Source: Anaerolineae bacterium (GTDB lineage Bacteria > Chloroflexota > Anaerolineae > B4-G1 > DUEL01). From it: 64,000 bases of DNA. The position numbers were made by a program, and so were the translations under genes. The notes below the pieces were generated by a model. It made no database searches. It was not told the DNA's origin and was given only the letters and a program-made list of their open reading frames with translations. Shown piece after piece: positions 7,377-26,382 of the stretch. Each line of letters starts with the position of its first letter. The stretch's first letter is position 1. The DNA is taken from contig JAFGEI010000023.1 in the NCBI GenBank assembly GCA_016931695.1, forward strand, positions 5,328 through 69,327, written 5' to 3'.

Positions 7377-7399
7377 TTTCGCTCCACAGGAGAAACAGC

Positions 7400-10695: not shown

Positions 10696-12120
10696 CTACG
10701 CTCCGAACGCCTGGGCGATGGCCGCCCGTGCGGCGTCATAGACGCTCTTGTAGAGTGCATTCCGGTCCAACGCCTTGGGGTGGACAGTCGCCAACGCGAC
10801 CATGACCTCCTCCTCGGCTGCCCGCGTGGGGATGGTCTCGCTCTCCAGCGCATCGGCGATCGCCCGGGCCAGGGCGGCCTGGGTGGGGCCATAGATCATG
10901 TTGGCCTGGCGCAGGTTCTGTTGCGGCAGGGTCGGCAGCAGCAGCGTCGCCGGGTAGACGGTGAGGCCGGGTTCCAGGATCGTCGTCAGCGCCTCCCGGC
11001 CGTGGAGCGGGTAGGTCAGTTGCATGGCGTAGGCATCGCCCAGGGGGGTATCCTTGCCGCCGGCAACCAGGTCGATCTGCACCTGGTTCAGGCCCTCGCC
11101 GGCGGCGCCTGTGCCCACCCGCAGGCCGTTTGTGCGAACAGCCTCGGCGGACAGTTCCAGGTCGCCAAAGCGGTCCTCCAGCTGGCCGCCGGGGAACGCG
11201 ACGGGCGTGTCGGCAGCGGCGACCCGGCCCAGCTTTTCCAGTTCCAGACGGATCTCGGCCTGCGTCTCGTGGATCAGGGCGCCGCCCACGCTTTTCAGCG
11301 GCCTGCGCGGCCGTCCCACCGGCACGCCCATCATGTTGAGCGCGGCCTTGACCGCCACGCCGCCGCCGTGGCGGCAAAAGATGCGCGACAGCTTTTGCAC
11401 CTGCCGTTGGAGCGCCCGCGCCTCGTCCAGCCGCCCCTCCCGCACGTGCTGCAGCACCTGCTGCCACACCTCGGGATAGACCTGGGCGCTGGCGAGGATC
11501 ATGCCGCCCACCCCGCCGGCGAGGGCGGGGACCACCACCTCGTCGTGGCCGATGAGCAGGTCGATGCGGTCGCCGGCGTACTCGAGCAGCTCCATCGTAT
11601 AGGTCAGGTTGCCGGACGAGTCCTTCAATGCCACGACGTTGGGCAGGTCGGCCAAATCCTCCACCACCGTGCGCGGCAGGTAGGCGTCCACTACCTGCGG
11701 GATGTTGTAGAGGATGATGGGGATGTCGACCTGGGCAGCGATGTCGTAATAGTGCTGGTAGAGGCCCTTGTCGGAAGGGTGGAGGAAGTAGGGGGTGACG
11801 ACGAGAACCGCGTCGGCGCCAGCCTCGCGCGCATCGGCGGCCAGGGCGAGGGCCTGGGCCGTGCCGGAGGCGCCGCAGCCGGCGATGACCAGCTTGTCTC
11901 GCACCTCGTTGCGGGCGATCTCGACCATCCGGCGCTGCTCGGCGCGGGTCAGGTAGGGAAACTCGCCCGTCGTTCCGCTGGTGACGACCCCGTCGACGTG
12001 CGGCAGGACGTGGCGGATCAGGCCGCGAAAGGCCTGTTCGTCCAAATCTTCTGTCTGGCGGTCAAAGGGCGTCACCAGGGCGGGGAATATGCCCCGCAAG
12101 TTCAATTCATCTTGGCGCAT
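10696..12120 (-). CDS. fusion protein: DHDPS/DapA-family aldolase domain plus Fae-like domain, copy 2 (divergent paralog of 9215..10687)
   Basis: 474 aa. The N-terminus is FPALVTPFDRQTEDLDEQAFRGLIRHVLPHVDGVVTSGTTGEF…, with an active-site-type Lys in VALKDSSGNL. The C-terminal domain is again Fae-like (…GLRVGTGAAGEGLNQVQIDLVAG…VHPKALDRNALYKSVYDAARAAIAQA). There is an 8-nt gap to the paralog downstream and a 10-nt gap to the GH57 gene upstream, all on the same strand. Confidence 0.7.
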   Translation of the reverse strand: MRQDELNLRGIFPALVTPFDRQTEDLDEQAFRGLIRHVLPHVDGVVTSGTTGEFPYLTRAEQRRMVEIARNEVRDKLVIAGCGASGTAQALALAADAREAGADAVLVVTPYFLHPSDKGLYQHYYDIAAQVDIPIILYNIPQVVDAYLPRTVVEDLADLPNVVALKDSSGNLTYTMELLEYAGDRIDLLIGHDEVVVPALAGGVGGMILASAQVYPEVWQQVLQHVREGRLDEARALQRQVQKLSRIFCRHGGGVAVKAALNMMGVPVGRPRRPLKSVGGALIHETQAEIRLELEKLGRVAAADTPVAFPGGQLEDRFGDLELSAEAVRTNGLRVGTGAAGEGLNQVQIDLVAGGKDTPLGDAYAMQLTYPLHGREALTTILEPGLTVYPATLLLPTLPQQNLRQANMIYGPTQAALARAIADALESETIPTRAAEEEVMVALATVHPKALDRNALYKSVYDAARAAIAQAFGA

Positions 12121-12130: not shown

Positions 12131-13714
12131 TTACAAGAAATTTTCAGCCATTTGTGTGCTAAAGATATTGTTCTGTTCTTGCAGCGCGCCGAGCCAGGCC
12201 CGGTCGAACTCGCCGCGGCGCAGTTGGGCGTAAATGGCTTCCATGTTCTCGACGTGCCCCCGCACCCGCTCCTCGGCGTACTGGCGGCTGCTTTCCCGCC
12301 ACATCATGAAGGCAAAGTCGCTGCTCTGGGCCAGCAAAAGCTCGCGCAGGTACTGCTGCCGGGCCAGGCGCAGCGCTTCTTCCGCGATGCCTGCCGCGGC
12401 GTCGAATTCGTCCAGCCGCTCGATCGCCCGGTAAAGCCGGGGATAGAGCCAGTGGTTGCGCCCCATCAGCCAGCTTTCGCTATAGCCCTGGTAGCCCCAA
12501 CTGGACAGCGACGGCGTCACCTCCTGGTTGACCGGATACTGGCGCAAATAGTCCGAAGCGGTGACCAGCTCGACCGTTTGCTGGTCATAGACCAGCTTGC
12601 GAAGCACCAACTCCAGCCAGGTCGGGCCTTCCCGCCACCAGTGGCCAAAGTGCTCGGTGTCGAACATGGCGACCAGGACCGGCTTGCGTCCCATCCAGGC
12701 CTGCAGCGCCTGCACCCGCTCCTGGCACCAGTGGAAAAAGTGCTGCGCGTGCGCGTCGCAGCGGCGAAAGGCCGCGTCGGGGTCGTACGCGCCGCCGCCC
12801 GCCCGCTTGCCGCGGTGATACTTGATCCCCGTGCCGGCCGGGCGGTCGATGTGGGTGAAAGGCGCGACCTGCTCCAGCTCCAGTTCGTAGCCAATGTCCC
12901 GGTCGCCGTCGAGGTAGCACGGATCGCCCGGATAGCCCTTGTCTTCCAGCCAGACCAGGTCGTGGATGCCCCAGTCGCGGCCAAAGGCGACCACTCCGTG
13001 GGGAGAATGGACCGGGGCGTGGACGCCGAACCGGGGCCGGGGGTGGCCGTTGAGAATGCCATTGGCGTTGAGAAAGGTGTAGCGAATTCCTTCCTCCTGC
13101 AGCAGCTCGTCGATGCCCGGAGAACGGCCACAGCAGGGAGCAAACCCGCACTCGGGAAGCCAAAAGCCCTGCGGCCGTTCGCCAAAGACGGCCTGGTGCT
13201 GCTGCAGGCCGAGCTGTATCTGGAGCCTGGCGGCGCGGGGGTAGAGCGTCCACAGGGGCAGATAGGCGTGGGTCGCCGCCGAGGTCAGCAGTTCGACGCA
13301 GCCCGCATCGCGCAGGAAGGCAAAGGCGGCCGTCAGGTCGTGATTCCAGTGTGCAAAGACGCGGCGGCAGCGCACAAAGTGCTGGTGGTACATCTGCGCC
13401 AGGCGCAAGAAATCGGGCCTGCCGCCCAGTCGCGCCATCTCCCGCTCCGCCAGCCGGACGCGGTCCTCCAGGTAGCCCAGGTAGCGCTGCTGCAGCAGCG
13501 GGTCGGCCAGTTGGGCCACCAGGCAAGGGGTGAGGGAGATGGTGATTCGGAAGCGGGCGCCGTCGCGGACCAGCCCGCTCAGGGCCTCGATCAGCGGGAT
13601 ATAGCTCTCTGTGATCGCCTCGAACAGCCAGTTCTCTTCCTCGGAGTGCGGCTGTGCGGCGTTGCGCACGAAAGGCATGTGCGTGTTCAAGACGAACAGC
13701 AGGCAGCCTTTCAC
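12131..13714 (-). CDS. glycoside hydrolase family 57 protein, alpha-glucan branching-enzyme-like
   Basis: Start set at the GTG at 13714, overlapping the upstream TAG by 1 nt (VKGCLLFVLNTHMPFVRN…). This is the GH57 HxH(L/M)P(Y/F)V N-terminal motif; an ATG alternative lies at 13678. The catalytic region is …WLPECGF…, …FDTEHFGHWW…. The size of about 528 aa fits GH57 branching enzymes. Confidence 0.75.
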   Translation of the reverse strand: MKGCLLFVLNTHMPFVRNAAQPHSEEENWLFEAITESYIPLIEALSGLVRDGARFRITISLTPCLVAQLADPLLQQRYLGYLEDRVRLAEREMARLGGRPDFLRLAQMYHQHFVRCRRVFAHWNHDLTAAFAFLRDAGCVELLTSAATHAYLPLWTLYPRAARLQIQLGLQQHQAVFGERPQGFWLPECGFAPCCGRSPGIDELLQEEGIRYTFLNANGILNGHPRPRFGVHAPVHSPHGVVAFGRDWGIHDLVWLEDKGYPGDPCYLDGDRDIGYELELEQVAPFTHIDRPAGTGIKYHRGKRAGGGAYDPDAAFRRCDAHAQHFFHWCQERVQALQAWMGRKPVLVAMFDTEHFGHWWREGPTWLELVLRKLVYDQQTVELVTASDYLRQYPVNQEVTPSLSSWGYQGYSESWLMGRNHWLYPRLYRAIERLDEFDAAAGIAEEALRLARQQYLRELLLAQSSDFAFMMWRESSRQYAEERVRGHVENMEAIYAQLRRGEFDRAWLGALQEQNNIFSTQMAENFL

Positions 13715-14103
13715 TAGGTCAGTGTGGTCCACGATTCCTCGTTGCTTGCGGATGGGCCGTCGCGCGGCAGGCAGATGGTGTTCGAGGTCACGGCGGGGTG
13801 AAAGCGCCCGGCCGCCGTCTTGAAACCAGCCTGCGCGCAATAGTTGCGATCCGCGGCCCAGATTTCCAGGTACCAATGATCGATCTCGGGGGAGATGTCG
13901 ACGTCAAAGTGAAAGTGGGAGTTGGTGTCGTCGAACAAGATGTCGGTCACGTCGTGGATGCGCAGCGTCCACTGCGCCTGCAGCGGGTCGAATCCTCCCT
14001 CGAGGCCGACCCGTTCGACGGTCTCTGGGCTGACGTGCCACCAGATAAAGGTCCAGTGGGGGTCCTTGGGCAGGAAATAGGCGCGGTCGGGATACTCATT
14101 CAT
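13714..14103 (-). CDS. DUF4912-like domain protein (GH57-associated)
   Basis: 130-137 aa. Start is either ATG at 14103 or TTG at 14127 (…NEYPDRAYFLPKDPHWTFIWWHVSPETVERVGLEG…). Family assignment is from memory of the conserved W-rich pattern that accompanies GH57 genes. Confidence 0.55.
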   Translation of the reverse strand: MNEYPDRAYFLPKDPHWTFIWWHVSPETVERVGLEGGFDPLQAQWTLRIHDVTDILFDDTNSHFHFDVDISPEIDHWYLEIWAADRNYCAQAGFKTAAGRFHPAVTSNTICLPRDGPSASNEESWTTLT

Positions 14104-15370
14104 CGGCTGGGCGCTGCGGTTCGTCAAACAGGCTGCTTTTCTTGATAATCTGGTAATAGGCGATCAGGGAGAGCGCGATGCGGGCGGTGTGCCACTGCTG
14201 CCAGTTGCCGTCCTGCACGTCGCCCTCCTGGCGGGTTTGTGTCTTGAGTAGCCATTGGGCGTTGGCCGAAAGGAGGGGCAGGGGGGCGTCGGGCATCTTG
14301 ACCAGCGTTTCCAGGGTGAGACAGGTGTTCTCGTAATGCCCCCAGCCCCAGCCCTCGATGTTGCCCTCGGCATCAAAGATGGGCCGCTCCTCGCCGCGCA
14401 GCCACTCGACCGCCCGGTTGATGCGCCCACCCAGTGGCCGGAGGTCGATCTCAAAGGCCTGGCCGACCAGCATGCCCTGCAGGGCGTCGCAGGTCTTGTT
14501 GAGCGCTGGGCTGCCGCTCAGGCCCTCCTGTCCGGGGTGGCAACTGCCGCTGTTCCAACTGCCGTCCGCGTTCTGGGTGGCGGTGAGCCAGCGAATGGCC
14601 CGCTCCACGATGGCGCGGTAATCCGCCTGGCGGACCTCGCCCAGCGCCTGCAGCGCCGCGCTCGTCGCGCCGACCTCGCTGTAGCAGCGGGTCGGCGTCG
14701 TCACGTCGAACCCCCATACCTGGGCATCCCACCCGCCGTCCTCGTTCTGGGCCTGGACCAGCCGCTCGATGCTGTACGAAACGGTGGGGGGGATCGCTTC
14801 CAGGCGTGGCTGGCCGGCCTGGTAAAAGCAGCGCACGGCGAGCGAGATTTCATAGACCGGCATCCCGCTGCCGGGATTGATGTACTCGACCGCCCACATC
14901 TCGGGGTGGGAGCCGATCCAGCTCAACCCCCGCTGCAACATGCCTGCGACGTCGACGTCATAGGCCAGGTTCTCCAGCTCCTGGGCGGCGTTCAGGCAGA
15001 GCACGGCGTAAGCGGTGCCCCAAAAGTTGCTCACGTCGAACTGGAATCCCCAACCGCCGTCGCTGTGCTGGCTGCGGCTTAGCCGGCGCACGGCGCGGAC
15101 GATGGCGTCCTCGGTCTGCTGCACCTTCCGGTGGAGGTTCATGTCCTGGCCCACCTGCGAGGTGATGTGCTGCACCTGCTCCTTGCTGCCGGCTATCAAC
15201 TCGCCGGCGTGGCTCATCATGCGCTCGGTGACCTGGCCGATCCGGGCAAAGCAGTCGATAAGCTTTTGGTACTTTTGCTCGTTGGTGAGATTGCTTTCCA
15301 GGATGCCCATCAAATAGCCCCGCACCTCTGGGTCCTGGAGAATCTCCAGGGGATTTTCGAGTGTGCTCAT
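14096..15370 (-). CDS. prenyltransferase/squalene-oxidase-repeat protein (alpha/alpha-toroid, terpenoid-cyclase/protein-prenyltransferase-like)
   Basis: Start at ATG 15370 (MSTLENPLEIL…) after the RBS aagggag. The upstream 66 codons of the track ORF are Arg/Ser-rich junk. QW-type repeats QNEDGGW and QNADGSW plus multiple W/G-rich helix pairs. 424 aa. Confidence 0.65.
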   Translation of the reverse strand: MSTLENPLEILQDPEVRGYLMGILESNLTNEQKYQKLIDCFARIGQVTERMMSHAGELIAGSKEQVQHITSQVGQDMNLHRKVQQTEDAIVRAVRRLSRSQHSDGGWGFQFDVSNFWGTAYAVLCLNAAQELENLAYDVDVAGMLQRGLSWIGSHPEMWAVEYINPGSGMPVYEISLAVRCFYQAGQPRLEAIPPTVSYSIERLVQAQNEDGGWDAQVWGFDVTTPTRCYSEVGATSAALQALGEVRQADYRAIVERAIRWLTATQNADGSWNSGSCHPGQEGLSGSPALNKTCDALQGMLVGQAFEIDLRPLGGRINRAVEWLRGEERPIFDAEGNIEGWGWGHYENTCLTLETLVKMPDAPLPLLSANAQWLLKTQTRQEGDVQDGNWQQWHTARIALSLIAYYQIIKKSSLFDEPQRPADE

Positions 15371-15371
15371 C

Positions 15372-16028
15372 TCACCACGCTCCCTTTTCGCCGGCGATCG
15401 CCATCCGCCGCGCTTCGCGGGCGACCTCCTTGACGTAGCAGGCCGTCCTGAGCGCTCCCAGCAGGTCCTGCGGCCTGCGGCAGACGCTGGCCTCAAAACC
15501 GTAGCAGTTGCGGATGACGTCGATGATGCTCTCGCCATCCAGGGTGGCAAAGTTTTTGAGCGCCACAAAGACGATCATGGGCAAGAGCGGCCGGTCCCCA
15601 CCCACGTACTTGATCCAATCGTGCGGCGGGTGGCTCAGGTCCAGCACCACCAGGTACGCCTCTTCGAAGCGCATGGTCCGCTCGAACGTCTCGTCGGGCA
15701 CGACGAACCAGGCGTCAATCTCTCGTTCGTCCAGCGCGCTGGCCACGTAGTACATCTTGCGCGGGGGTTTCCGCGCCGGGGGGGCTGCTTCGTCCCACGG
15801 GGCCTGGGGCTGCTGCTGTTTGCCGATCTGCACCAGGTCGTCGATGCGGCCCACGCGGTCCAGGTAGCCGATCAGCTCCCGCACCTTGCCTTCCGTCCCT
15901 TCCCCACCCAGGGTGTCGTACTCCACGCCGAGGTGGAAAAAGAGCGTCTTTAAGCTCTCTTTTGTGGGAAAGTGACGGGTGAGAATCTGAAACAGTCTGC
16001 TCCGGTAATCCTGCTGCGCTTCCGCCAT
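15372..16028 (-). CDS. hypothetical protein with N-terminal effector-associated-domain (EAD)/death-like motif
   Basis: Start at ATG 16028 (MAEAQQDYRSRLFQILTRHF…), with a possible alternative GTG at 16070 inside the GDE gene. The motif …SLKTLFFHLGVEYDTLGGEGTEGKVRELIGYLDRVGRIDDLVQIG…QP follows the L-x-L-C/F-F-x-LG-x-Y-x-L-x-G-x-K-x-RELI-x-Y-x-R-x-GR-L-x-L pattern. The C-terminal 130 aa is an unrecognised alpha/beta region. Confidence 0.5.
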   Translation of the reverse strand: MAEAQQDYRSRLFQILTRHFPTKESLKTLFFHLGVEYDTLGGEGTEGKVRELIGYLDRVGRIDDLVQIGKQQQPQAPWDEAAPPARKPPRKMYYVASALDEREIDAWFVVPDETFERTMRFEEAYLVVLDLSHPPHDWIKYVGGDRPLLPMIVFVALKNFATLDGESIIDVIRNCYGFEASVCRRPQDLLGALRTACYVKEVAREARRMAIAGEKGAW

Positions 16029-16029
16029 C

Positions 16030-18420
16030 TCAACTTGCTCCCTTTCCGAAAACCTCCACCAGCGGGTCACACCACTGAGACCAAAACTGGATCGGTTCTT
16101 TCACCGGCACCGGGTTGTCGTGCGTCTGCTGGTCCGGGTACGGGTTGCTGCCCCGAGGCCGGGCCAGCAGTTCGTGGTTGTAAAAGATCGCCCCCTCGGT
16201 CATCTGGTGGTCCAGGGTATTGATCAATATCTGTTCGACGAGTTCGTCCTCGCCCAGCATTTGCAGCAGCTTGATCAGGTAGGGCGTGGAGCGCAGCCAG
16301 ACGACGTCGGCGTGATACTGGTGATCGCCATAGTATATCTGTGGGGAGACGCCGCGGGCGACGATGCCAAAGGGCCACCTGCCAATGCCGTATTTGACCA
16401 GCCGGCGATGGACCAGCAATTCCTGCCTGATCCGCTCCCAGATGGCGGACAGCTCTGCCGGGGCAAAGATCATCTCGCCCAACATTGCCGCCGCTACCAC
16501 GGCCGGCTCGGTCGGCAGCGGGTCCCGCACGCTCCGCTCGCGATAGACCACGTTGTACAAAAAGCCCCGCTCCGGATCCCAAAACACGGCCTTAAAGTGC
16601 GCCGTGGCGCGGGCGAGCAGGTCGGCGACCCGCTCCCTGAACGCGGCAATTTCCGGCCCGGCCTGCGCCGGCAGCGGCTCCCGGCTCAGCGCCAGGCGGA
16701 TCGTTTCCAACATCCCCTGCAGCATGACGATCCACTGGGCGTTGATCTCGGGCAAAAAGAACTCGGGCGCGGAGAGATGTTCTTTCAATGCCCTGTCGTC
16801 TGCCAGCCGCTCGTACAGGGCATGGATGAAGGATTCGGACACCCGGTTGGGCAGGTTTTCGATGAGCCGCCCCTCGCAGAACACGGACTGGGTTTGGGTA
16901 TCGATCCACGAATGTCGCGGGACGCTCAACAGCAGGCCGGTCGGGGCGTCTACTTGCGGCGGCCCGTCTTTCTTGTAAAGCGGATGAGCCAGCGCATCCT
17001 GGCGGCAAAACCGTTCGACCATCTTGATCGCATAGGGCAAGAGGTCCCAGGCAAAGTCCACGTCACCTGTCCGCTGGACGTAGGCGTTGGCGGCGATAAA
17101 GCACAACAAGGTGGCGTCAGAGGTATTATAGTCCTCGTTGTCTTCCTTGTTAAACTGGGGCAGCCGGTTCAGGATGCGCCCCGAAGCCTCGTCTTGCATG
17201 CAGAGGGCGAGCAGGATAATGTTCTTGATGTTCTCCCGCTCCTCCGGGATGCGCATCAGCGTGTCCATGCTGTTCAGGATGCCCTCGAACACGTCGCGGT
17301 ACCAGGGGTTCTTGAACCACCAGGCGCCCGCATAGGGGACCTGGACGTAAAAGATGGGCGGCTGGGCCAGGTGGATGTAGAGCTTGAACTTGGTCAGGCC
17401 TGCGATGCGGCCCAGGATTGCATCCTGGAACGGGATGCCGGGCCGCAGTGGAAAGAGTTGCTGGAGGCGCTGGTACAGCCGCCAGTCCTCCCCCCGCGAC
17501 TGTTGCAGCTGCTCTTCCAGCACGGGGAACGAGGGAAAGGCCGCTTTTTTTTCTTCCTCGTGCAGGTTGCAGCAGAAAAAGAGCCGCGCCCAGCGGGATG
17601 CAAAAGAGGGCGGGATTCGAACTTGAAAGAAGGCAGCGATGTCGTGGTGCTCCTCCTCGAACACGGTTTTGCCATCGGGGGATTCCTCCCTCTCGCCGGT
17701 GCCCAACTTGTAATGCCACTCCAGTTGTTGCGGCTTGGCAAAACGATCCAGTTCTACCGGTGGTAGGCGGAACGTGATCGACCGCTGCCCGTGGCGAAAT
17801 TGGATGTTTCGATAGCTCGCGGAATCGTTCACCTGGATTTCATAATCGAAGCGGGAGGGGTCGTACATGTGGCGGATGTCGAGGAACGGCTGGAGGACAG
17901 GGGTGATGGCGGTGCCGTGATGGACCAGCCCGTGGGGAAAATAGAGTTCGACGCAGCCGGTGATGCACAACGGCTGGTTTCGCGAGTGCAGGTAGTAGGA
18001 AACGTAGAACGGGATCTCCGCGCCCTCCCTCCCACCCAGGGCGGCGGCGGCGATCTTGTATTCGTAGGTCACGCGCCAGGGATTGAGCCGCACCGCCAGG
18101 CGGGTGCGATCGGTGACGAACGGCAGGTACTTGCCGGCCGGGTCCTGCAGGCCGAGCGCGACGCAGTCGATGAATTTCCAATTCTCGCCGCCCTGGTAGA
18201 CCAGCAGCCCCTCGTAGGGATAGTCGCGGTTGGGAGCGATCAGCCGCTTGTCGTCTATCTCGATGATGCTGGAATAGATGGACTGAACCCACTCGGCGGA
18301 AGGGGCCATCAGCGCGCAGCGCCGGTTGCGGGCAAATCCCCAGTCGGGGTTCTCGAGCGGGGTCAGCGAGATGAAACTGCCGATCGGGTCTTCTGCCAGG
18401 GGGGTGTCCGCGTAGCGCAT
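16030..18420 (-). CDS. glycogen debranching enzyme family protein (amylo-alpha-1,6-glucosidase-type C-terminal alpha/alpha toroid with GDE N-terminal domain)
   Basis: 796 aa. …FYNHELLARP…, …WFKNPWYRDVFEGI…, …LDHQMTEGAI… are typical of the bacterial/archaeal GDE_N plus GDE_C architecture. Confidence 0.8.
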   Translation of the reverse strand: MRYADTPLAEDPIGSFISLTPLENPDWGFARNRRCALMAPSAEWVQSIYSSIIEIDDKRLIAPNRDYPYEGLLVYQGGENWKFIDCVALGLQDPAGKYLPFVTDRTRLAVRLNPWRVTYEYKIAAAALGGREGAEIPFYVSYYLHSRNQPLCITGCVELYFPHGLVHHGTAITPVLQPFLDIRHMYDPSRFDYEIQVNDSASYRNIQFRHGQRSITFRLPPVELDRFAKPQQLEWHYKLGTGEREESPDGKTVFEEEHHDIAAFFQVRIPPSFASRWARLFFCCNLHEEEKKAAFPSFPVLEEQLQQSRGEDWRLYQRLQQLFPLRPGIPFQDAILGRIAGLTKFKLYIHLAQPPIFYVQVPYAGAWWFKNPWYRDVFEGILNSMDTLMRIPEERENIKNIILLALCMQDEASGRILNRLPQFNKEDNEDYNTSDATLLCFIAANAYVQRTGDVDFAWDLLPYAIKMVERFCRQDALAHPLYKKDGPPQVDAPTGLLLSVPRHSWIDTQTQSVFCEGRLIENLPNRVSESFIHALYERLADDRALKEHLSAPEFFLPEINAQWIVMLQGMLETIRLALSREPLPAQAGPEIAAFRERVADLLARATAHFKAVFWDPERGFLYNVVYRERSVRDPLPTEPAVVAAAMLGEMIFAPAELSAIWERIRQELLVHRRLVKYGIGRWPFGIVARGVSPQIYYGDHQYHADVVWLRSTPYLIKLLQMLGEDELVEQILINTLDHQMTEGAIFYNHELLARPRGSNPYPDQQTHDNPVPVKEPIQFWSQWCDPLVEVFGKGAS

Positions 18421-18431
18421 GGGCTGTCACC

Positions 18432-19880
18432 TCATTCCTGCACACAAAAGACGACGCCGGCCTGGGGTTGGTGCTCTTTGCCTGCCCGGTCGGTGACGGC
18501 GACGGTCAGCCAGCGCGGGCGGTCGAGAAAATTGTGCAGCGCCTGCTCCATCCGCGCGAAATCGCGCCGCAGTTCCCAGCTGCGGCTGGGGTCAGCCGCA
18601 TCGTGGAGCACCACGAACAAGCGGTTGGCGGCGTGGAACCGGCCTTGTTGAGACTGCTGCGCGTACAGCCAGCGCGCCAGTGCCGCGGGGTGTGCCTGGG
18701 CGTAGCCGACGTCGTGGCCGAACCCGCGGGGGAGGGCGGTCAGCTTGAGGTCGAACCCCGTTTCGTCCAGGTAAAAGTCGACCGTGTGGTGGAAGGGGTC
18801 GGGCTCGGGGCGGGTGCGGGGGTGGGCCAGGATGATCTCGAGCGCCGCCTGGTGGGTATGAAAGTTGTACCAGCGCCGGAGGACATAGCCGCCAAATTCG
18901 CGCGGCGGAAGGTCGCGTTCGGCTGCCACCCGCCGCGTCTCGCGGCGCAGTGCGCGCAGCGTCGGCGTGGAATAGACAAAGCGGCTGGCCTGGTCCCAGG
19001 CGTCGTCCTGCACCCGGCCCCAGGGCGGCATATCTTTGACCTGCAGCAACTCCTGGCGCCGGTCGACTGGCGCGGCGGGTTTTTGGAACACGATCACGTA
19101 CTCGTGCTTAAAGACGTAATATCCCCCTGCCAGGGCCCGGTAGCGCCAGAGGTTGCTGGCGCGGCCCTTGCCCCGCTCGTTGCCGGCGATGTTTTTGACC
19201 ACGATGGCCTTGGTGCGCAGGCCCACCCGCTGCATCCGCTCCATGCAGTAGAAGCCGAGGGGGACCAACTCGCCGCGGCTGTACTTGTCGCCGACGACCA
19301 GCGCCGCAAATCGCCCTGGCTCCAGGAGATCGAACCCGTGCCGGGCCACCGCGCCGAACTGGTCGAGGAAAGCTTCCACGGAAGGGGCGTTGGAGAGGTC
19401 GGCGGGATGGTCTGAAAACGAGATGATGTCGTGATAGGGGGGGTGGAGCAGCAGCAGCTGGGCATGTTCCGTGCCCAGCGCAGCCAACTCTTGCCGCACA
19501 CGCACTGCTGTTTCGGCCTGGGTGGCGTCGCCCGGCACGAGGCGGATGCGGTCGCCCAGCAGCTCGGGTGGTAGCTTGGCGCGCACCGCTTCCACCAGCC
19601 CCGGCTGCAGCTCGACCCCCACCAGCCGCCGCTCGAGGCGCGCTGCCTCGATGGCGCTGGTGCCCGAGCCGAGGAAGAGGTCGAGCACCACGTCGTCCTT
19701 CTTTGTGTAGCGCAGCAAGATCTGGGTGGCGATCTGGGGGACGAAATTGCCGTGATAGTCCAGTTGGTGCCCCCCGCTCCGGTCGCGGCTGTCGATCAGC
19801 CACAGGGAGTCGGTCCAGATATGCTCATACTCCCGCCAGCGATCGAGGTCGATATCGGAATAGGGAGGGGTCTTGGTCAT
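18432..19880 (-). CDS. SAM-dependent amino-methyltransferase-like protein (motif I DLFLGSGTS … motif IV LLLLHPPY), with an about 250-aa C-terminal extension of unknown function
   Basis: Start at ATG 19880 (MTKTPPYSDIDL…), forming ATGA with the stop of the upstream GH57 gene. The 41-codon Arg-rich upstream extension is rejected. FxGSGT followed about 85 aa later by (D/N/H)PPY is the N6-adenine/N4-cytosine DNA MTase or Trm11/RlmL-type RNA MTase signature. Confidence 0.6.
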   Translation of the reverse strand: MTKTPPYSDIDLDRWREYEHIWTDSLWLIDSRDRSGGHQLDYHGNFVPQIATQILLRYTKKDDVVLDLFLGSGTSAIEAARLERRLVGVELQPGLVEAVRAKLPPELLGDRIRLVPGDATQAETAVRVRQELAALGTEHAQLLLLHPPYHDIISFSDHPADLSNAPSVEAFLDQFGAVARHGFDLLEPGRFAALVVGDKYSRGELVPLGFYCMERMQRVGLRTKAIVVKNIAGNERGKGRASNLWRYRALAGGYYVFKHEYVIVFQKPAAPVDRRQELLQVKDMPPWGRVQDDAWDQASRFVYSTPTLRALRRETRRVAAERDLPPREFGGYVLRRWYNFHTHQAALEIILAHPRTRPEPDPFHHTVDFYLDETGFDLKLTALPRGFGHDVGYAQAHPAALARWLYAQQSQQGRFHAANRLFVVLHDAADPSRSWELRRDFARMEQALHNFLDRPRWLTVAVTDRAGKEHQPQAGVVFCVQE

Positions 19881-21262
19881 AATTCGGCCTTTTTGAGAAT
19901 CTCGTCCAGGATATCGGCGCCGGTGCGGTTGCTCTGCCCATTGATCGCCACGCGCAGGTCGCGGTATAGACCGGGGGTCAGGTCCTCGCCGGTGGCGTAG
20001 CACGTGAGGGCGATGGCGCGGACCCCGTTGGCGATGCCATAGCGCGGCTCATACCGTTCCAGGCGCTCGAAGAAAAAGGTACAGCTGGCATACATCCGTT
20101 GCCGATAGAACTGGGCTTCCAGCAGCCACAACATTCGCTGTGCTCCCTCGGCACCAAGTTTACTCAGGCCGTGCCGGGCCAGCAGTTCCGGGCCCTCGAT
20201 CTCTCCCATCACCACGGCAATGTACTCGTCCCGCAGCGCCCAGGGTTCCAGGCCCATCTTGAGCGCCTCGCGTTCGTAGGCCGCGTCCAGGTTGCAGGCC
20301 AGGTTATCCAGCGCGCGCCGCAGGGCGCCTTTCCAGCGGCTGTCGCCCTCGGTACACTCGCATCCCACCACCCAGCGGGCCAGCCCGTGCGGGCAGCTCC
20401 AGGACGAGTTCTGCACGATCTCGATCTCTGTTTTCGGAGGGTGGTCGCGCAGGTAGCGGCCCAAGGTCGTGATGGTGTAGCCGTGTTGTTCGCCGATTTC
20501 CAGGATGCGCTGCAGCACCGCGGCCCCCTGTGGGCGGTGGTGGCCAAAAGTCTCGCCGTCGGTGGCCGCGAGCAGCAGCCCGTCGCGCTGGCAGCGCCAC
20601 CTGACGTGGTCCCAAATCCATCCGTCCACGTTGCCCGGGTCCGGCATGTCGAAGGAGAGGGTGTTGGAGAGGTGGCGATCGCGCACAAAGACCGCGATTT
20701 TCTCTTCTTCGCCGCGGATGCGCACCCAATAGGGGCCGGCGCCGTTCTCCATGCTTCCCCGCACCTGTTCGTCGGAGAGGATGGTAAAGCGGATACCTTC
20801 TGAAACCAGGACCTGCAGCGTCGCCTCGTCGACCGCCATCTCTGGCAGCCACATCCCCTCGGGGCGGTGGCCGAAGCGATGGGTAAAGCTGGCGATGCCC
20901 CAGCGGACCTGGCAGACCTTGTCCCGCCGCCGCGCCAGGGGGAGGATCGTGTGGTGGACCGGCTGAGCCAGTCCGTTGCTGACGCCGTGGGCGGCATAGT
21001 GGGCCCGTTCGCCGGCGACGATCCGCTCGTACGTGGCAGGGGCGTGCTCGTCCAGCCAACGGGCCAGCGTTCCCCCCAGGTTAAAGCTGATCCGTTCGAA
21101 ACTGCCGGCTTCGGCCAGGGGAGTATAGCTCTCGGCGGCGATGCGCTCGTTCCAGTTGGCGTACGGGGCGGCGTCCGGCTCGCGGGAGATGTGATTGGTG
21201 AACGGGTCCGCTCGCGGCGGCTGGTAAAAATGGCCGTGGACACAGAAATAGCAATCAGACAT
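19877..21262 (-). CDS. glycoside hydrolase family 57 protein (alpha-amylase/4-alpha-glucanotransferase-like)
   Basis: Start at ATG 21262 after aaagga (MSDCYFCVHGHFYQPPRADPF…). Conserved GH57 region …GMWLPEMAVDE…, …ATDGETFGHH…. 461 aa. Confidence 0.75.
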   Translation of the reverse strand: MSDCYFCVHGHFYQPPRADPFTNHISREPDAAPYANWNERIAAESYTPLAEAGSFERISFNLGGTLARWLDEHAPATYERIVAGERAHYAAHGVSNGLAQPVHHTILPLARRRDKVCQVRWGIASFTHRFGHRPEGMWLPEMAVDEATLQVLVSEGIRFTILSDEQVRGSMENGAGPYWVRIRGEEEKIAVFVRDRHLSNTLSFDMPDPGNVDGWIWDHVRWRCQRDGLLLAATDGETFGHHRPQGAAVLQRILEIGEQHGYTITTLGRYLRDHPPKTEIEIVQNSSWSCPHGLARWVVGCECTEGDSRWKGALRRALDNLACNLDAAYEREALKMGLEPWALRDEYIAVVMGEIEGPELLARHGLSKLGAEGAQRMLWLLEAQFYRQRMYASCTFFFERLERYEPRYGIANGVRAIALTCYATGEDLTPGLYRDLRVAINGQSNRTGADILDEILKKAEL

Positions 21263-21269
21263 CGGCTCG

Positions 21270-22190
21270 TCAGTCTGTCCTTTGCGAGATTTGCCAGCCC
21301 CAATTGCTGGCGGCGGCAACCAGGCTGGTGTAGACCAGGCCCGGCAGGATCGAGATGAGCAGGGTGAGGATGAAGGGATCGGTCTCCATTCCCGCTCGCG
21401 CGCTGAGAAAAACGAACAGCGCAAAGGCACCCCCTGCCCAACCGCCCAGGCCGACGATGGCGCCCATCTTTTGCGCCTCTTTGCTGCTCAAAGTGCGCCC
21501 GCCTTTTTTGGCCTCGTGCCCGACCATCCAGCCCGCGAGCAGGCCCAAGGGAAATCCGGCCAGAACGCCCACACAACAGATCGCGCCCAACCCGGTGACG
21601 ATGGCGTTGACGACCGCCAGGATCAGCCCGAGCTGCATGGTAGATGCAGCCATGCTGGCCGGGACAGGGCTGGGACGGGATGGCGCTGGCCTGGGCGGTT
21701 GGGGAGCGGGCCGGCTGGGCTGGGGTGTGGGGCGGGTGCGCACCGCTGGGGGCGGCGGGTACAGCTTGGCTAGCGAGGACTGGGCCAGGCGGACGATTTC
21801 TTCGTCGTCGGCGACGTCGCGCGCCTGCTCAAACTCCCACCGGGCCTGATCGATCGATCCCTGCCTCAGGGCGTAGTCGCCGCGGGCAATGTGAGACTGG
21901 GCGAGCTCGTCGTCCGCTGAAGGCTCGCCGGGCGGCGGCTCCGGCAAGGACGGCGCGAGGGGTTCCGCCGGGGGAGCGACCGGCGCTTCTTGCGGCGCGA
22001 ACGGTTCCACCATCAGGGTGGGCATCTCGATCGACGCTGGTTCTGGCCAGTCGAACAGGTCGTCCAGCTTGGGGATTTCTACCTCGGGCGGTTTCGGCCA
22101 CTCGAACTGGTCGCTGCCCAGGGCAAAGCCGCACTGCTGGCATGTCGTGGCCTGCGGGTCGTTTTCCGTGTTGCAGATGGGACATTTCAT
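21270..22190 (-). CDS. zinc-ribbon domain membrane protein (N-terminal C4 zinc ribbon, TPR-like segment, Pro-rich linker, C-terminal polytopic TM domain)
   Basis: Start at ATG 22190 (MKCPICNTENDPQATTCQQCGF…). Pro-rich PPPPAVRTRPTPQPSRPAPQPPRPAPSRPSP. C-terminal glycine-zipper TM segments. Confidence 0.55.
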   Translation of the reverse strand: MKCPICNTENDPQATTCQQCGFALGSDQFEWPKPPEVEIPKLDDLFDWPEPASIEMPTLMVEPFAPQEAPVAPPAEPLAPSLPEPPPGEPSADDELAQSHIARGDYALRQGSIDQARWEFEQARDVADDEEIVRLAQSSLAKLYPPPPAVRTRPTPQPSRPAPQPPRPAPSRPSPVPASMAASTMQLGLILAVVNAIVTGLGAICCVGVLAGFPLGLLAGWMVGHEAKKGGRTLSSKEAQKMGAIVGLGGWAGGAFALFVFLSARAGMETDPFILTLLISILPGLVYTSLVAAASNWGWQISQRTD

Positions 22191-22195
22191 CGCCT

Positions 22196-24343
22196 TCACT
22201 CCGCGTACTGCCGGGCTGCGAGGCGCAGCGCCAGCGCCCACGTCCCGCCTGCCGGCAGGTCGAGTTGCCAGATCAACAGCGTGCACGTCCCCTGGTAGGA
22301 CCGCTCGTAGCCGGCTTCCGAATTTGTGACGGCTTCCAGGGGGAAATGCCACAGCGTGGCCGGGCGGTCGGCGTGCAACGAGACCTCGCCCGCCAGATCG
22401 GGCAGGGTCGAGCCGACGACCAGCTGCGAGACCCCGTCGCGCTGGCCTGCAGCGGCCAGGCCGAGGCGCTCACCGTCGACGCGCAGGACGCCGTACTCGC
22501 TGTTGCCGCCGACGATGCCCCAGTTCCACTCGACGCCCAGGCGGAGGGAGAGGGGTTCGGCGCCCGCGTTTGTGACCTGGTAGTCGATGGTCAGCTCGTC
22601 GCTGCCGGCGGCGGCGGACAACCGTTTCTCTAGCCGTACCGGCCCGGCGGCCCCAACGCGGCCCACGCGGAACAGGGTCAGGCTGGCGCCCGGCTCCTGC
22701 TCGTCGATGCGCACTCCATACGGCTGGGCGAGAAAATCGCCGCGCTCCGCGCCACCGCCGTGGGAAAAGGACTCGCAGGTTGTGCCGGGGTGGAGAAAGT
22801 GGTCCAGCAGCGCCAGGCGGCGGTACGAATCGTGCGCGATATAGTCCGCGACGTCGCGTTCCTTGACCCGGATTGCAGCTGGCGGGGCTTTTTCGCCCGG
22901 CAGGACCAACCGCCCCTCGGCTGTCGCAGCGAGCAGTTCGTCGTGGTACCCCTCGCGGCGGCGGGTCATGCTGTTCAGCAGGTTGTAGCGCTGCCAGCGC
23001 CAGTCCCATTCCACCAGCGCCCCGCCGTAGCCTGGCTTGCAGACTAGCAGGTGCCGGTCCGTGTTCACCACCACCTCGGCCTGTCCATCACCGTCCACGT
23101 CATACTGCTCGACCTCGGCCCAGGGAGCGGCGCCGAAGCGGGCCTGGTCGGCCAGGTGCTCGGCGGCGATGAGGTGCGCATAGTTGGCGACGCGGATGTG
23201 AAAGAGATAGATGCCGCCAAAAAGGCCGTGCCAGTAGCCGCAGTTGCACTGGGACGACCAGAGGTGATCCAGCGCCCGCGTTTTTTTCTCTCCCTCGGCC
23301 ATCGCGTGTACCTTGCGGCTGACCCAGAGCATCTTTTTGTGCATCTGGTTCACCTCGTCGTAGCGGGCGATGAAGGAGCGCCAGTGCCCACCCTTGACAA
23401 AGCGCAGCACGTCCTGCCGTCCCTGCTCTGCCAACTGCTGCCGGATCCGCTGCAGCGCGGCAAAGTCGTCTGGCGGCAGCGCCCACTGCATCATCTCCTC
23501 GTAGGACGCGCAGGGCAAATAGACGCGGCCGAGCGGCGGCTGGCCGGCGGCAATCTCTCCCAGCGGGCGCGTGTCGAGCCAGTCGCTGTTGGCCTCCAGG
23601 GCGGTAAAGAACCGCTCGACCCACGCCTCTCGCTCCCAGCAGAGGTCCCACGTCCCGGGCCAGAGGCCGAACTTTTCGCCGTCGTCCCCCATCACGGCGA
23701 CCCTGGCCTGCCCGGCGCTGTTTTCGGGCGCCGCGTCTGCCTGGGTGCGCAGCCAGTCGATCACCTCTTCCACCGGGTGCCAGGGGATGGCGTAGCGCAG
23801 GTACATCGAGTTGCCAAATACCTGCAGCGCGTGGCCCTGCTCCTCGGTTACGTAGGCGCCAAAGAGATCGTCGTCGGTGAGACCGACCATCTTGAAATGG
23901 GTGTCGTCGAGCAGGGTGTAGCGGATGCCGGCCTCGGACAGAGACTTGGGGAGGTGGGGCTCCCAGACCCGCTCGGCCAACCACGCGCCTGTTGGCCGGC
24001 GTCCAAAGCGCTGCTGCAGAAAACGGTTCGTCTTGTGCAGCTGGCCGGCCTTGTCGGCGTCGGGGATCGCGGTCAGGATCGGCTCATAGTAGGCGCCGCC
24101 GAGCATCTCGACCTGGCCGCGGTCGACCAGGGCGGTCAGGCGCTGCAAGTGGTCGGGCTGGTGGGCGGACAGCCAGTCCAGCAGCGGGCCAGTATAGTGA
24201 AAGGCCATGCGGATGCGCGGGTGGCGCTCCAACGCTGCCAGCAGCGGGCTGTAGGCCTGTTGGACTGCCAGGGCAAAGACGTGGCCGAAATTGCCCACAG
24301 GCTGGTGGTTGTGGATGACCAGGGATAACGTGATCCGGCCCAT
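22196..24343 (-). CDS. large glycoside hydrolase family 57 protein (4-alpha-glucanotransferase/amylopullulanase-like, with C-terminal accessory domains)
   Basis: Start at ATG 24343, overlapping the glgA stop (TGATG) (MGRITLSLVIHNHQPVGNF…). GH57 motifs …WLAERVWEP…, …GDDGEKFGLWPG…. 715 aa. Confidence 0.75.
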   Translation of the reverse strand: MGRITLSLVIHNHQPVGNFGHVFALAVQQAYSPLLAALERHPRIRMAFHYTGPLLDWLSAHQPDHLQRLTALVDRGQVEMLGGAYYEPILTAIPDADKAGQLHKTNRFLQQRFGRRPTGAWLAERVWEPHLPKSLSEAGIRYTLLDDTHFKMVGLTDDDLFGAYVTEEQGHALQVFGNSMYLRYAIPWHPVEEVIDWLRTQADAAPENSAGQARVAVMGDDGEKFGLWPGTWDLCWEREAWVERFFTALEANSDWLDTRPLGEIAAGQPPLGRVYLPCASYEEMMQWALPPDDFAALQRIRQQLAEQGRQDVLRFVKGGHWRSFIARYDEVNQMHKKMLWVSRKVHAMAEGEKKTRALDHLWSSQCNCGYWHGLFGGIYLFHIRVANYAHLIAAEHLADQARFGAAPWAEVEQYDVDGDGQAEVVVNTDRHLLVCKPGYGGALVEWDWRWQRYNLLNSMTRRREGYHDELLAATAEGRLVLPGEKAPPAAIRVKERDVADYIAHDSYRRLALLDHFLHPGTTCESFSHGGGAERGDFLAQPYGVRIDEQEPGASLTLFRVGRVGAAGPVRLEKRLSAAAGSDELTIDYQVTNAGAEPLSLRLGVEWNWGIVGGNSEYGVLRVDGERLGLAAAGQRDGVSQLVVGSTLPDLAGEVSLHADRPATLWHFPLEAVTNSEAGYERSYQGTCTLLIWQLDLPAGGTWALALRLAARQYAE

Positions 24344-25800
24344 CAGCTTTGCGCGTGGCGTTCGATGGCCTGGCGGTAGAGCTGGAGGTACTTTTTCGCC
24401 GCAGCGCTCCAGCAAAAGTCGCCCTTCATGCCCCGCATCTGGAGCGCTTCCCACGCCGCCCGGTCGCGAAAGACCCGCATCGCTCGCCGGACTGCCTCCA
24501 GGCCGGTCTCGGGGCCAAAGGGCGAAAAAGAGAAGCCGGTGGCCTTGTCCGGCCGCTCGTGGTAGTCGATCACCGTATCGGCCAGGCCGCCGGTCTTGTG
24601 TACTACCGGCACCGCGCCATAGCGCATGGCGATCATCTGCCCGCGCCCGCACGGCTCGAAGCGGGAGGGCATCAGGTAGATGTCGCATCCGGCATAGATG
24701 CGGTGGGCCAGGACGTCGTCGTGCCGGAAAAGGCAGCGCACCTTGTTGGGGAAACGGCGTTGCAGCCCCTCCAACATCTCCTGGTATTCCGGCTGGCCGG
24801 TGCCCAGCAGCACCAATTGAACGTCGCCGGCCAGCAGCGGCTCCATCATCGCCGGCAAGATGTCGACTCCCTTGACGTGCTCCAGCCGGGTCACGAGGCC
24901 GAGCAGCGGTACGTCAGGGCGGACCGGCAGGTGCGCAGCCTGTTGCAGCGCGGCCTTATTCACCGCCCGCATCTTGGTGCTGGAGCGGTCAAAGTGGTGC
25001 GAGATGTGGGGATCGGTCGCCGGGTCCCACACCTGGCAGTCGATGCCGTTGGGCACGCCGGAGAGCCGATCCTGGCGCTGGCGGAGCAGGGGCGCCAGGT
25101 CGCCGCCCGCTGCTGTTTGTAGGATATCTTGGGCATATTGCTGGCTGACCGTGTTGACCAGGTCCGCGTTGGCGATTCCCTGCGCCATCCAGTTGACTTG
25201 TCCGGGCGGTTCCACCTCCAGGTGCTTGACGTACTCCATTTGGGCAAAGGTCAGCAGCAGCCGGCCAGAGATGCCCTGGTAGGCGAGGTTATGGATGGTA
25301 AAGAGACAGGCCAGGTGGCGGTATTGGCGGAGATAGCGGCCCTCGTAGGCCAGCCAGGTTGGAAGGACGGCGGTATGCCAGTCGTTGGCGTGGATGACGT
25401 CGGGCATCCACTCCAGCATCTCCAGCGAAGCGATCACCGCGCGGCCAAAGAAGGCGAATCGCTGCGGGTCGTCGTCAAAGCCATAGACCCGCTCGCGCGG
25501 GGAAAAGAATTTTTCGTCCCACACCAGATAGACGGGGACGCCGTCGCCCGTCGTGGTGTGGACGAGGTGGGCCCGCTCGTGTCCTGGGCCGACCGGCACG
25601 GAGAAGGGCCTGGCAAACTTTTTGAACTGGAATTCCTCGGAGCGAATGGAACCATAGCGCGGGATCATCAGGCGAACGTCGTGGCCCATGGCGTGGAGCA
25701 CGTTGGGCAGTGCGCCGGCGACGTCCGCCAATCCTCCGACCCGGGCGAATGGAACCGCTTCTGCGGCGAGAAACAATACTTTTAGCCGTTTGTCGCTCAT
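24343..25800 (-). CDS. glgA: glycogen synthase (ADP-glucose-type, GT5)
   Basis: Start at ATG 25800 (MSDKRLKVLFLAAEAVPFARVGGLADVAGALP…). Classical GlgA N-terminus and C-terminal GT-B domain (…GLVTRLEHVKGVDIL…, …MPSRFEPCG…). Confidence 0.85.
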   Translation of the reverse strand: MSDKRLKVLFLAAEAVPFARVGGLADVAGALPNVLHAMGHDVRLMIPRYGSIRSEEFQFKKFARPFSVPVGPGHERAHLVHTTTGDGVPVYLVWDEKFFSPRERVYGFDDDPQRFAFFGRAVIASLEMLEWMPDVIHANDWHTAVLPTWLAYEGRYLRQYRHLACLFTIHNLAYQGISGRLLLTFAQMEYVKHLEVEPPGQVNWMAQGIANADLVNTVSQQYAQDILQTAAGGDLAPLLRQRQDRLSGVPNGIDCQVWDPATDPHISHHFDRSSTKMRAVNKAALQQAAHLPVRPDVPLLGLVTRLEHVKGVDILPAMMEPLLAGDVQLVLLGTGQPEYQEMLEGLQRRFPNKVRCLFRHDDVLAHRIYAGCDIYLMPSRFEPCGRGQMIAMRYGAVPVVHKTGGLADTVIDYHERPDKATGFSFSPFGPETGLEAVRRAMRVFRDRAAWEALQMRGMKGDFCWSAAAKKYLQLYRQAIERHAQS

Positions 25801-26030
25801 GTCCTGCCATTCCTCGAGATCCCGGCCCGTTGCCCGTGTTCTATCCAACCGCCCTCTCCCGGCGCGGTGCGCGAAAGCGGCGTAAAAGTCGGCGAGGGTG
25901 TCGGCGTGGCGCTGGGTGAGCGGCGGGAAGATGGGATGAAAGAAATGAACACTCCCACCACCATGCTGACGACAACGAGCAGGCTAATGATCCAAAAGAT
26001 GCGCTGGGCACTCGATTTTTTACGTGTCAC
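25797..26030 (-). CDS. possible small membrane protein (77 aa) translationally coupled to glgA
   Basis: GTG start preceded by AGGAGA at 4 nt (MTRKKSSAQRIFWIISLLVVVSMVVGVFISFIPS…), with an N-in TM helix. Its TGA stop overlaps the glgA ATG (ATGA). The 5' half is AT-richer than the flanks. The Pro/Thr-rich tail could be a GC-frame artefact. Confidence 0.4.
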   Translation of the reverse strand: MTRKKSSAQRIFWIISLLVVVSMVVGVFISFIPSSRRSPSATPTPSPTFTPLSRTAPGEGGWIEHGQRAGISRNGRT

Positions 26031-26382
26031 AATTTCTCCTTGTGCCGCTCATTTCTCTCGGCGCGGGTTGTGGGATTGGCACCATTGCCACTTCCGGTTC
26101 CAAAGGTGCCGGTTTCGGGCCTGGAATTCGCTTTCAGCCGTGGAATTCCGTGGCGGGAATGACGCCGCCCCCAAAACACCAGGCTCCAGGTCGTATTATA
26201 GCACAGAGGGCGGCAACGACAACCAAAAAGGAAGGAGGTGTTCGAGGCAAATCCCGCCCAGTGGGCGAGAACGGCGAGGTAAAAACTGCTTTGGCTTCGA
26301 AATCCCATCGCCCCTGTCACTTGCGTGGGGAGCAAGGTGGGATAGAATGGGCCAACCGACGCATTTCTTGCAGGAGGCTGTT

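Follow-up and report, generated by a model that had tools for sequence, protein, structure and literature searches.

We analysed a window of 64,000 nucleotides from an Anaerolineae bacterium (assembly GCA_016931695.1, contig JAFGEI010000023.1, positions 5,328 to 69,327 of the forward strand); all coordinates below are those of the window. It contains a minus-strand cluster that includes a GT5 glycogen synthase, a GH57 AmyA-type enzyme and a GH57 branching enzyme. Inside this cluster lies the gene studied here, at 18432..19880 (minus strand), whose open reading frame (ORF) translates into 482 amino acids (aa), with its stop codon at 18432-18434. The product consists of a methyltransferase (MTase) domain followed by a nuclease-like domain, which we call X, and we refer to the protein as M.X.

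The gene upstream of M.X, at 19877..21262 (minus strand), encodes a GH57 protein with a DUF3536 domain (PF03065, E = 4e-22; DUF3536, E = 5e-22). The two genes share the four nucleotides ATGA at 19877..19880 (minus strand): the upstream gene ends in ...GAA TTA TGA and M.X begins with ATG ACC. A first-pass annotation of this stretch had described the same overlap and placed the gene inside a glucan operon, and both observations held. We preferred the ATG at 19880 to the start of a longer ORF opening with GTG because homologues begin within ~10 residues of that ATG. A homologue search returned a hypothetical protein from an Anaerolineae metagenome-assembled genome (MAG) that is 100% identical to M.X, full-length homologues in Chloroflexota at 63-76% identity, and more than 4200 homologues in all.

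The protein divides into the MTase domain (aa 1-270; 19071..19880, minus strand), a linker (aa 271-299; 18984..19070, minus strand) and X (aa 300-482; 18435..18983, minus strand). The predicted local distance difference test score (pLDDT) falls below 50 at aa 281-303, and short-form homologues, which lack X, stop at the linker. A C-terminal region of about 250 aa had been proposed for this gene; the region exists and, linker included, measures ~212 aa.

A permuted amino-methyltransferase domain

The MTase domain is predicted to have a class-I Rossmann fold in which motif I precedes motif IV. Motif I, DLFLGSGTS (aa 67-75; 19656..19682, minus strand), forms the putative S-adenosylmethionine (SAM)-binding loop after beta-1, and motif IV, LLLLHPPY (aa 142-149; 19434..19457, minus strand), the putative catalytic loop after beta-4, with a His in place of the usual D, N or S. 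The first-pass annotation had correctly singled out this pair of motifs but overestimated their spacing at about 85 aa: their starts are 75 aa apart, and F69 is separated from H146 by 77 aa. Across 31 aligned homologues both motifs were invariant, including D67, F69, G71, G73 and T74 of motif I and H146, P147, P148 and Y149 of motif IV, and HPPY is retained in MTase orthologues from other phyla. In the AF2 model, motif I comes after the strand E64-67 and HPPY after predicted strand beta-4 (E140-145). Motif I aligns with DPFAGTGTT of TTHA0409 and DPFFGVGTT of CcrM, and HPPY matches SPPY of TTHA0409 residue for residue in the sequence alignment. The tetrapeptide is located, as had been supposed, in the motif IV position.

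At the level of sequence, the decisive family assignment came from PADLOC. Its model PDLC03351 (MTase_II), which represents Type II DNA MTases and was built from REBASE entries, matched aa 3-267 colinearly with profile positions 88-347 of 348 (E = 1.7e-96, 321.5 bits). The first-pass annotation had proposed checking the domain against three Pfam profiles, of which one passed. PF01555 (N6_N4_Mtase) scored above its gathering threshold (59.2 bits against 26.7; E = 7.2e-16). PF01170 (UPF0020) stayed below its cut-off (15.5 bits against 22.3; E = 0.014), as did the weak match of PF03602 (E 0.007-0.014 for the two together), and PF02384 (N6_Mtase, gamma class) gave no match to M.X at E values up to 0.1. 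The PF01555 match is limited to aa 16-98, aligned with profile positions 138-218 of 221, because the motif order is swapped relative to class beta.

The best solved relative in a search of PDB sequences was the beta-class enzyme TTHA0409 of Thermus thermophilus (2zie; profile E = 3e-17), which aligned as two swapped stretches, query 36-117 with chain 210-291 and query 129-270 with chain 30-178. The next matches were MboIIA, CcrM, DpnA and PvuII, such that the nearest solved relatives are all beta-class DNA MTases. The strand order of the AF2 model is that of a class-I Rossmann fold and is consistent with a permuted order. From the swapped alignment and this strand order, we conclude that the domain is a circular permutation (I then IV) of a beta-class DNA amino-MTase of the N6-adenine/N4-cytosine (N6A/N4C) type. 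Its motif order (I, IV, then the rest) is that of the gamma class, and under the published class definitions (PMC7544214), in which class beta requires the order IV, target recognition domain (TRD), I, it is not a strict class-beta member. With respect to the motif IV consensus (D/N/S)PP(Y/F/W) (PMC7544214), PPY and the structural position are kept and the first residue alone differs. The domain is not new as a kind, its family being already modelled as a Type II MTase in PADLOC. The NCBIfam equivalog for CcrM scored 31.3 bits against a cut-off of 830, with the match confined to the motif I region. A literature search returned nothing specific on DUF3536, on HPPY as a motif IV or on permuted beta-class MTases.

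No O- or C-MTase family matched in the Pfam and NCBIfam scans, apart from the generic Methyltransf_25 below its cut-off (E = 5.9e-4). Judged by its sequence relatives, M.X carries an amino-MTase of the N6A/N4C DNA MTase lineage and not an O- or C-MTase; the first-pass annotation had likewise read it as an amino-MTase and not as an O-MTase. Some evidence could be taken to indicate RNA as the substrate, with M.X as an N2-guanine or N6-adenine MTase resembling Trm11, RlmL or RsmD and X as a domain that binds or cuts RNA. The placing of motif I before motif IV fits such enzymes, some homologues are annotated 'RsmD' or 'predicted RNA methylase', and PF01170 and PF03602 match weakly. A fold search with the full-length model also returned only generic Rossmann amino-MTases (aTrm11, TTHA1280, PrmA, TrmN/Trm14). 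These structural matches have 17-19% identity (19% for aTrm11), and the search cannot tell the families apart, since alignment in sequence order gives an advantage to those in which motif I comes before motif IV, by colinearity alone. PF01170 and PF03602 fall short of their cut-offs whereas PF01555 passes, and both the solved sequence relatives of the domain and the gene partners of X described below are DNA MTases. We consider an RNA substrate highly improbable.

Colinear relatives of the MTase domain in cultured bacteria sit in restriction-modification (R-M) contexts. In Fusobacterium vincentii, genes for a D12 MTase, a DpnII restriction endonuclease (REase), an Mrr_cat nuclease and an MTase of the M.X type follow one another in that order. 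On a Salipiger plasmid, an M.X-type MTase domain forms part of a protein annotated 'DNA methyltransferase', beside a PLD-family protein. HPPY orthologues in Ignavibacteria, Fusobacterium and other low-GC genomes have no GH57 neighbour and are adjoined by nucleases.

The X domain and its gene partners

When aa 271-482 were searched against 1.8 billion representative proteins, 331 clusters were recovered, mostly of free-standing proteins of 200-230 aa. A profile search with X found 1713 proteins, and those listed were all unnamed or 'hypothetical' and without a Pfam domain. Free-standing members are ~212 aa long, and the family spans Chloroflexota, Ignavibacteria, Bacteroidota-like genomes and Bacillota. 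Profile searches of X against Pfam, NCBIfam, PADLOC and PDB sequences gave no match, and Foldseek with the X model found no significant match in PDB or BFVD.

The alignment of 49 diverse members has the conserved blocks W-G..Q.D.wD, RWYNFWSA, DF-x8-FDxK and WLY.NQS..R....NRLF. Residues D98, D107 and K109 in domain numbering, which correspond to D368, D377 and K379 of M.X, are each kept in at least 90% of these members. The same three positions are invariant in alignment A3 (there D85, D94 and K96) and present in 25 of the 25 fused homologues shown. Asp368, in VDFYL (18777..18779, minus strand), is proposed as the first catalytic acid and lies on what is predicted to be the second core strand; Asp377-Leu-Lys379, in FDLK (18744..18752, minus strand), is the proposed (D/E)xK, on the predicted third.

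Structural modelling of the C-terminal domain, which the first-pass annotation had recommended, produced a confident model of aa 284-482 with a PD-(D/E)xK-like topology (pLDDT 88.7, predicted template modelling score 0.80). The model runs from a long helix through three consecutive strands, helices, a fourth strand and more helices to a last strand, and it places the first Asp on strand 2 (E83-88) and DxK on strand 3 (E91-99). Membership of the PD-(D/E)xK superfamily is recognised by D...DxK on adjacent strands of an alpha-beta-beta-beta-alpha-beta core, and this is what the model of X presents. Motif and topology thus suggest that X has the arrangement of a PD-(D/E)xK nuclease core. By sequence it is a candidate for a new restriction-enzyme family, absent from Pfam, NCBIfam, PADLOC and PDB.

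To see what accompanies free-standing X, we scanned metagenomes with alignment A3 and examined 41 directly flanking ORFs at 38 loci. They included 18 D12-class N6-adenine DNA MTases, four PF01555 proteins and two ICEA proteins. An NCBIfam search of the D12 MTases adjoining X found no equivalog. In Ignavibacteria, X lies downstream of a 357-aa MTase, with one small gene (META) between them, and this MTase is 47% identical to the MTase domain of M.X and keeps HPPY. At two metagenome loci, L128 and L138, a separate HPPY MTase of 267-275 aa lies immediately upstream of X or overlaps it; the genes overlap in the L128 pair, and the L138 enzyme is 39% identical to the M.X MTase. These pairs are split versions of the M.X fusion. 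On a Bacteroidota-like contig the X gene overlaps that of a D12-class (Dam-like) MTase, and in two Caldilineaceae loci (L081, L082) X is convergent with, and adjoins, a short MTase.

X recurs, then, with two unrelated families of DNA MTase, and the arrangements include fusion, tandem genes and convergent genes. This is the classical signature of a Type II REase; a nuclease-like gene linked to DNA MTases, and linked to different families of them, is what is looked for in an R-M system. The first-pass annotation had seen no REase beside the gene and proposed, as one of two readings, that the MTase was an orphan, a possibility that does not survive, the fused X being itself a candidate nuclease whose family adjoins DNA MTases.

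Several of these loci had further features. Low-GC (0.30-0.38) marine or Bacteroidota-like contigs (L132-L136, L166, L167, L169, L090) share a recurring context of DUF6427, X, D12 MTase, DUF4254 and a ~340-aa ORF (Glyco_transf_9 in L090). The ICEA matches (NlaIII-like endonuclease, PF05315) probably correspond, by ORF length and position, to the 206-aa ORFs that directly follow X in L138 and L163 (~4565-5187); if this placement is right, two nuclease-type genes cluster there with MTases, as in defence islands. The Priestia megaterium replicon pFDU301A (NZ_CP045273.1), which belongs to a cultured strain of Bacillota, encodes an X homologue at 3869-4591 of locus L171, ~30-35% identical across two queries. 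No recognisable MTase is directly adjacent to it, its neighbours being a dCMP-deaminase-like gene, an AAA_18 protein and a 358-aa ORF without a Pfam match.

Because the X family adjoins DNA MTases of two families and carries D...DxK on a PD-(D/E)xK-type core, we think it reasonably probable that M.X is a single-chain R-M protein, a permuted beta-derived DNA amino-MTase fused to a PD-(D/E)xK-type restriction nuclease. FLGSGT in motif I would bind SAM, and a flipped target base would be set against HPPY and methylated on its exocyclic nitrogen. We infer that the substrate is DNA and that the MTase and X share their sequence specificity. The target base may be N6-adenine, a guess made because the other MTase partners of X are D12-class. 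X, through D368, D377 and K379, would be a Mg2+-dependent endonuclease that cuts the same sequence when it is unmethylated; its nuclease fold and activity are predicted from the model. The protein would be translated by coupling to GH57+DUF3536, with no promoter of its own, from a module at the end of, or inside, the glycogen gene cluster that has been vertically inherited in Anaerolineae. Repeated deletion of the nuclease half would have left a highly conserved solitary MTase.

A number of observations weigh against this interpretation. The His that opens motif IV falls outside the consensus of PMC7544214. Some X genes with an intact motif have no adjacent MTase (order DUF6427, X, DUF4254; L132-L136), all in one lineage. 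The embedding of M.X in a metabolic operon would be unusual for a selfish R-M system, and so would the mean identity of its MTase, at 76% against 71% for the flanking GH57. Finally, palindrome avoidance is the same in genomes with and without X. When 4- and 6-bp palindromes were counted against expectation in 32 long-form loci, 51 short-form loci and the window itself, both groups showed only the generic depletion of CTAG, CATG and AGCT, and no site set them apart.

Operon setting, inheritance and alternative roles

Relatives of M.X are encoded by more than 558 GTDB species representatives, and the 80 best are nearly all from Chloroflexota MAGs. Of 64 assessable species-representative loci, 29 have GH57+DUF3536 as the next gene upstream in the same orientation, and they include forms with X (11/26) and without it (18/38). 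This adjacency is nearly confined to relatives at least 70% identical (28/49, against 1/15 below 70%). A 4-nt stop/start overlap (ATGA or GTGA) is kept in ~15 of 32 adjacent loci, in long and short forms. The other flanking genes vary, and in some genomes large PKD-domain genes are inserted between GH57+DUF3536 and the MTase.

The GC content at third codon positions (GC3) is 0.85 in M.X, similar to that of neighbouring genes and indicative of native composition, and the pairwise identities of the MTase are correlated with those of GH57 (r = 0.59, 595 pairs). On these grounds the M.X module is old and vertically inherited, not a recent insertion. Across Anaerolineales, Thermoflexales and Caldilineaceae, MTase domains share 63-81% identity, more than the GH57 or GT5 genes beside them. 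The long and short forms do not separate phylogenetically, the nearest neighbour being of the opposite form in 23 of 84 loci, and we saw no remnants of X in short-form loci; from these two observations, X has been cleanly lost several times. The nuclease-like domain is still carried by ~40% of the loci examined.

The conserved coupling would be explained if M.X were an amino-MTase whose substrate was not DNA but something tied to glucan metabolism, for instance the GH57+DUF3536 protein, a different protein, or amino or hydroxyl groups of a polysaccharide. The first-pass annotation had offered recruitment to a carbohydrate or protein substrate as one possibility. In its favour, GH57+DUF3536 stays upstream in those 29 loci although the rest of the flanking sequence is rearranged, the overlap of 4 nt is maintained, and the motif IV His is atypical of DNA MTases; NPPY-type enzymes such as HemK methylate protein glutamine (PMC7544214). 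Against this stand the match to a Type II DNA MTase model and the HPPY orthologues that lie beside nucleases with no GH57 neighbour. The linkage is moreover limited to one clade and tracks descent, and some genomes have PKD-domain genes between the two. For a conserved operon member that shares no function with the other genes there is also a precedent in Escherichia coli, namely dam in the aroK-aroB-damX-dam operon. The analysis found no link between M.X chemistry and glucans, nor any positive evidence for recruitment past synteny, and relatives lie in R-M islands (Fusobacterium) and on plasmids. We give a glucan-linked substrate very little credence: the GH57 linkage is best read as inherited operon membership, and M.X probably has nothing to do with sugar chemistry.

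A second alternative starts from the conservation of the MTase. M.X could be a domesticated solitary DNA MTase with a housekeeping epigenetic role, like CcrM or Dam, whose operon position ties its expression to carbon-storage genes; X would then not be a restriction nuclease but would assist the MTase by binding or nicking DNA, for example as a MutH-like nuclease in strand discrimination. An MTase domain more conserved than the adjacent GH57 or GT5, native composition, an ATGA junction kept in ~15 lineages, and X-less forms that are as common as X-bearing ones and phylogenetically intermixed with them are all as expected for such an enzyme. So are the lineage with X and no neighbouring MTase, and the X and D12 MTase pairs in a recurring chromosomal context (DUF6427, X, MTase, DUF4254). 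The strict retention of a catalytic-looking D...DxK in fused forms argues the other way, as do the lack of CcrM similarity past motif I and the pairing of X with two unrelated MTase families in varied gene orders, convergent ones included, which is the pattern of classical restriction enzymes. We judge the housekeeping role unlikely, if still worth serious attention.

A related scheme gives both forms of the protein one function. The HPPY MTase, with or without X, would be no selfish R-M element but a clade-wide, vertically inherited genome-marking enzyme of Anaerolineae, and X a new family of methylation-sensing nicking or repair nucleases analogous to MutH. Synthesis of the MTase would be tied to a glycogen-metabolism gene by the conserved ATGA translational coupling, and X would also partner Dam-like MTases in Bacteroidota and Ignavibacteria. 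We regard this scheme as quite unlikely. If true, it would represent a new housekeeping module of methylation and nuclease that links carbon-storage state to DNA methylation.

The remaining genes around M.X add the following. The gene 11 nt past the M.X stop, at 16030..18420 (minus strand), is GDE_C-like (Pfam GDE_C, E = 2.9e-08) and belongs to the same operon. We considered it as a conserved partner and rejected it, as tblastn found a match in 0 of 87 related loci. A scan for promoters and terminators found nothing above chance between the cluster genes and a sole good promoter-like site upstream of GT5, which is weak evidence; M.X is probably expressed from the operon promoter. The glycogen cluster as a whole (12131-25848, minus strand) has three distinct GH57 genes, a branching enzyme with BE_C, an AmyA/4-alpha-glucanotransferase type and GH57+DUF3536, and the Pfam scan found no GH13 enzyme in it.

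Between two of the GH57 genes, a 307-aa ORF (21270-22193, minus strand) was considered as a hidden REase and rejected: it encodes a membrane protein that begins with a zinc ribbon, is rich in proline in its middle part and ends in a hydrophobic stretch, with no Pfam family above threshold. Homologues of this ORF (37-39% identity) lie directly upstream of the MTase in three loci (L014, L021, L035) where GH57+DUF3536 is missing. In three others (L001, at 3455-5403; L002; L003), two overlapping genes lie just upstream of the same GH57+DUF3536 gene. The first encodes a further MTase, a canonical, full-length PF01555 protein (331 aa, E = 2.5e-52), and the second a 318-aa protein without a Pfam match; together they may form another R-M pair at this site.

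Also inside the glucan cluster, on the minus strand, a 490-aa squalene-hopene-cyclase-like repeat protein (PF13243; 14096-15568) overlaps an ORF with EAD7 (PF19960; 15372-16070), which in turn overlaps the end of the GDE_C-like gene; the boundaries are uncertain. Beyond the cluster, tandem paralogues at 9215-10687 and 10696-12120 (minus strand) encode a DHDPS-family aldolase (PF00701) fused to a formaldehyde-activating-enzyme domain (Fae, PF08714), and homologues with 80-82% identity are found near the MTase in several related loci. In a 603-aa protein encoded at 7304-9115 (plus strand), a PRK/uridine-kinase-like P-loop domain is accompanied by a weak match to an nSTAND3 NTPase. Divergent from the glycogen cluster, an FGGY-family sugar kinase with a ~175-aa N-terminal extension is encoded at 25867-27915 (plus strand), and the opening part of its ORF contains, on the minus strand, a match to a sigma-70-like promoter (26195-26222).

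Significance and comparison with known systems

If X is a nuclease, its family of more than 1700 members fills a gap in the annotation of R-M and defence systems and may bring new specificities. The MTase domain is a clear natural circular permutation with a non-canonical His in motif IV, which bears on how much variation the xPPY loop tolerates. Conserved, native, translationally coupled within a glycogen operon and repeatedly deprived of its nuclease half, M.X offers a good system in which to study the domestication of R-M genes. For glycogen biology the finding is probably neutral, and M.X should not be annotated as a carbohydrate-modifying enzyme. Three features vary known themes in a new way: the fusion with the MTase at the N-terminus, the HPPY motif, and a translational coupling to a glycogen gene that has been conserved.

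Both halves of the MTase domain are homologous in sequence to the beta-class enzymes (PF01555; TTHA0409/2zie, M.MboIIA, CcrM, DpnA, M.PvuII). In TTHA0409, the counterpart of M.X aa 36-117 is the motif X/I region (HxxxFP...DPFxGSGT), and that of aa 129-270 is the motif IV region (xPPY, then ...LLxPGGxxxxxxGD). By sequence, the exocyclic amino methylation by the xPPY loop is probably shared as well. M.X differs in having the order I then IV in place of IV, TRD, I, in the His that starts motif IV and in the nuclease-like domain fused at its C-terminus. The PADLOC model PDLC03351 is colinear with the whole MTase domain, and the 357-aa orthologue from Ignavibacteria has the length of the model; the model itself has ~87 extra N-terminal positions and no C-terminal fusion.

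Type IIC/IIG single-chain R-M proteins (Eco57I, MmeI, BcgI-like) usually have an N-terminal nuclease, a gamma-class MTase and a large TRD in ~900-1000 aa. M.X would resemble them in carrying an MTase and a candidate PD-(D/E)xK-type nuclease in one chain, at fixed stoichiometry. In contrast to them, it has the MTase first and a length of 482 aa, and its modules occur elsewhere as separate genes.

The small Type IIP PD-(D/E)xK REases that accompany D12 MTases (EcoRV, DpnII/MboI) resemble X in size (~205-230 aa), in the D...(D/E)xK motif on what the model predicts to be consecutive strands, and in a gene that adjoins, and often overlaps, that of a DNA adenine MTase. Unlike these enzymes, X has no detectable sequence or Foldseek similarity to REase families in Pfam, PADLOC or PDB, and its N-terminal W-G..Q.D.wD and RWYNFWSA helices are unique to the X family.

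With the solitary MTases Dam and CcrM, M.X shares clade-wide conservation, native composition and placement among unrelated metabolic genes, and its short forms are likewise MTases without a nuclease. It nevertheless belongs to neither family, and the nuclease-like domain kept at ~40% of its loci sets it apart from both.

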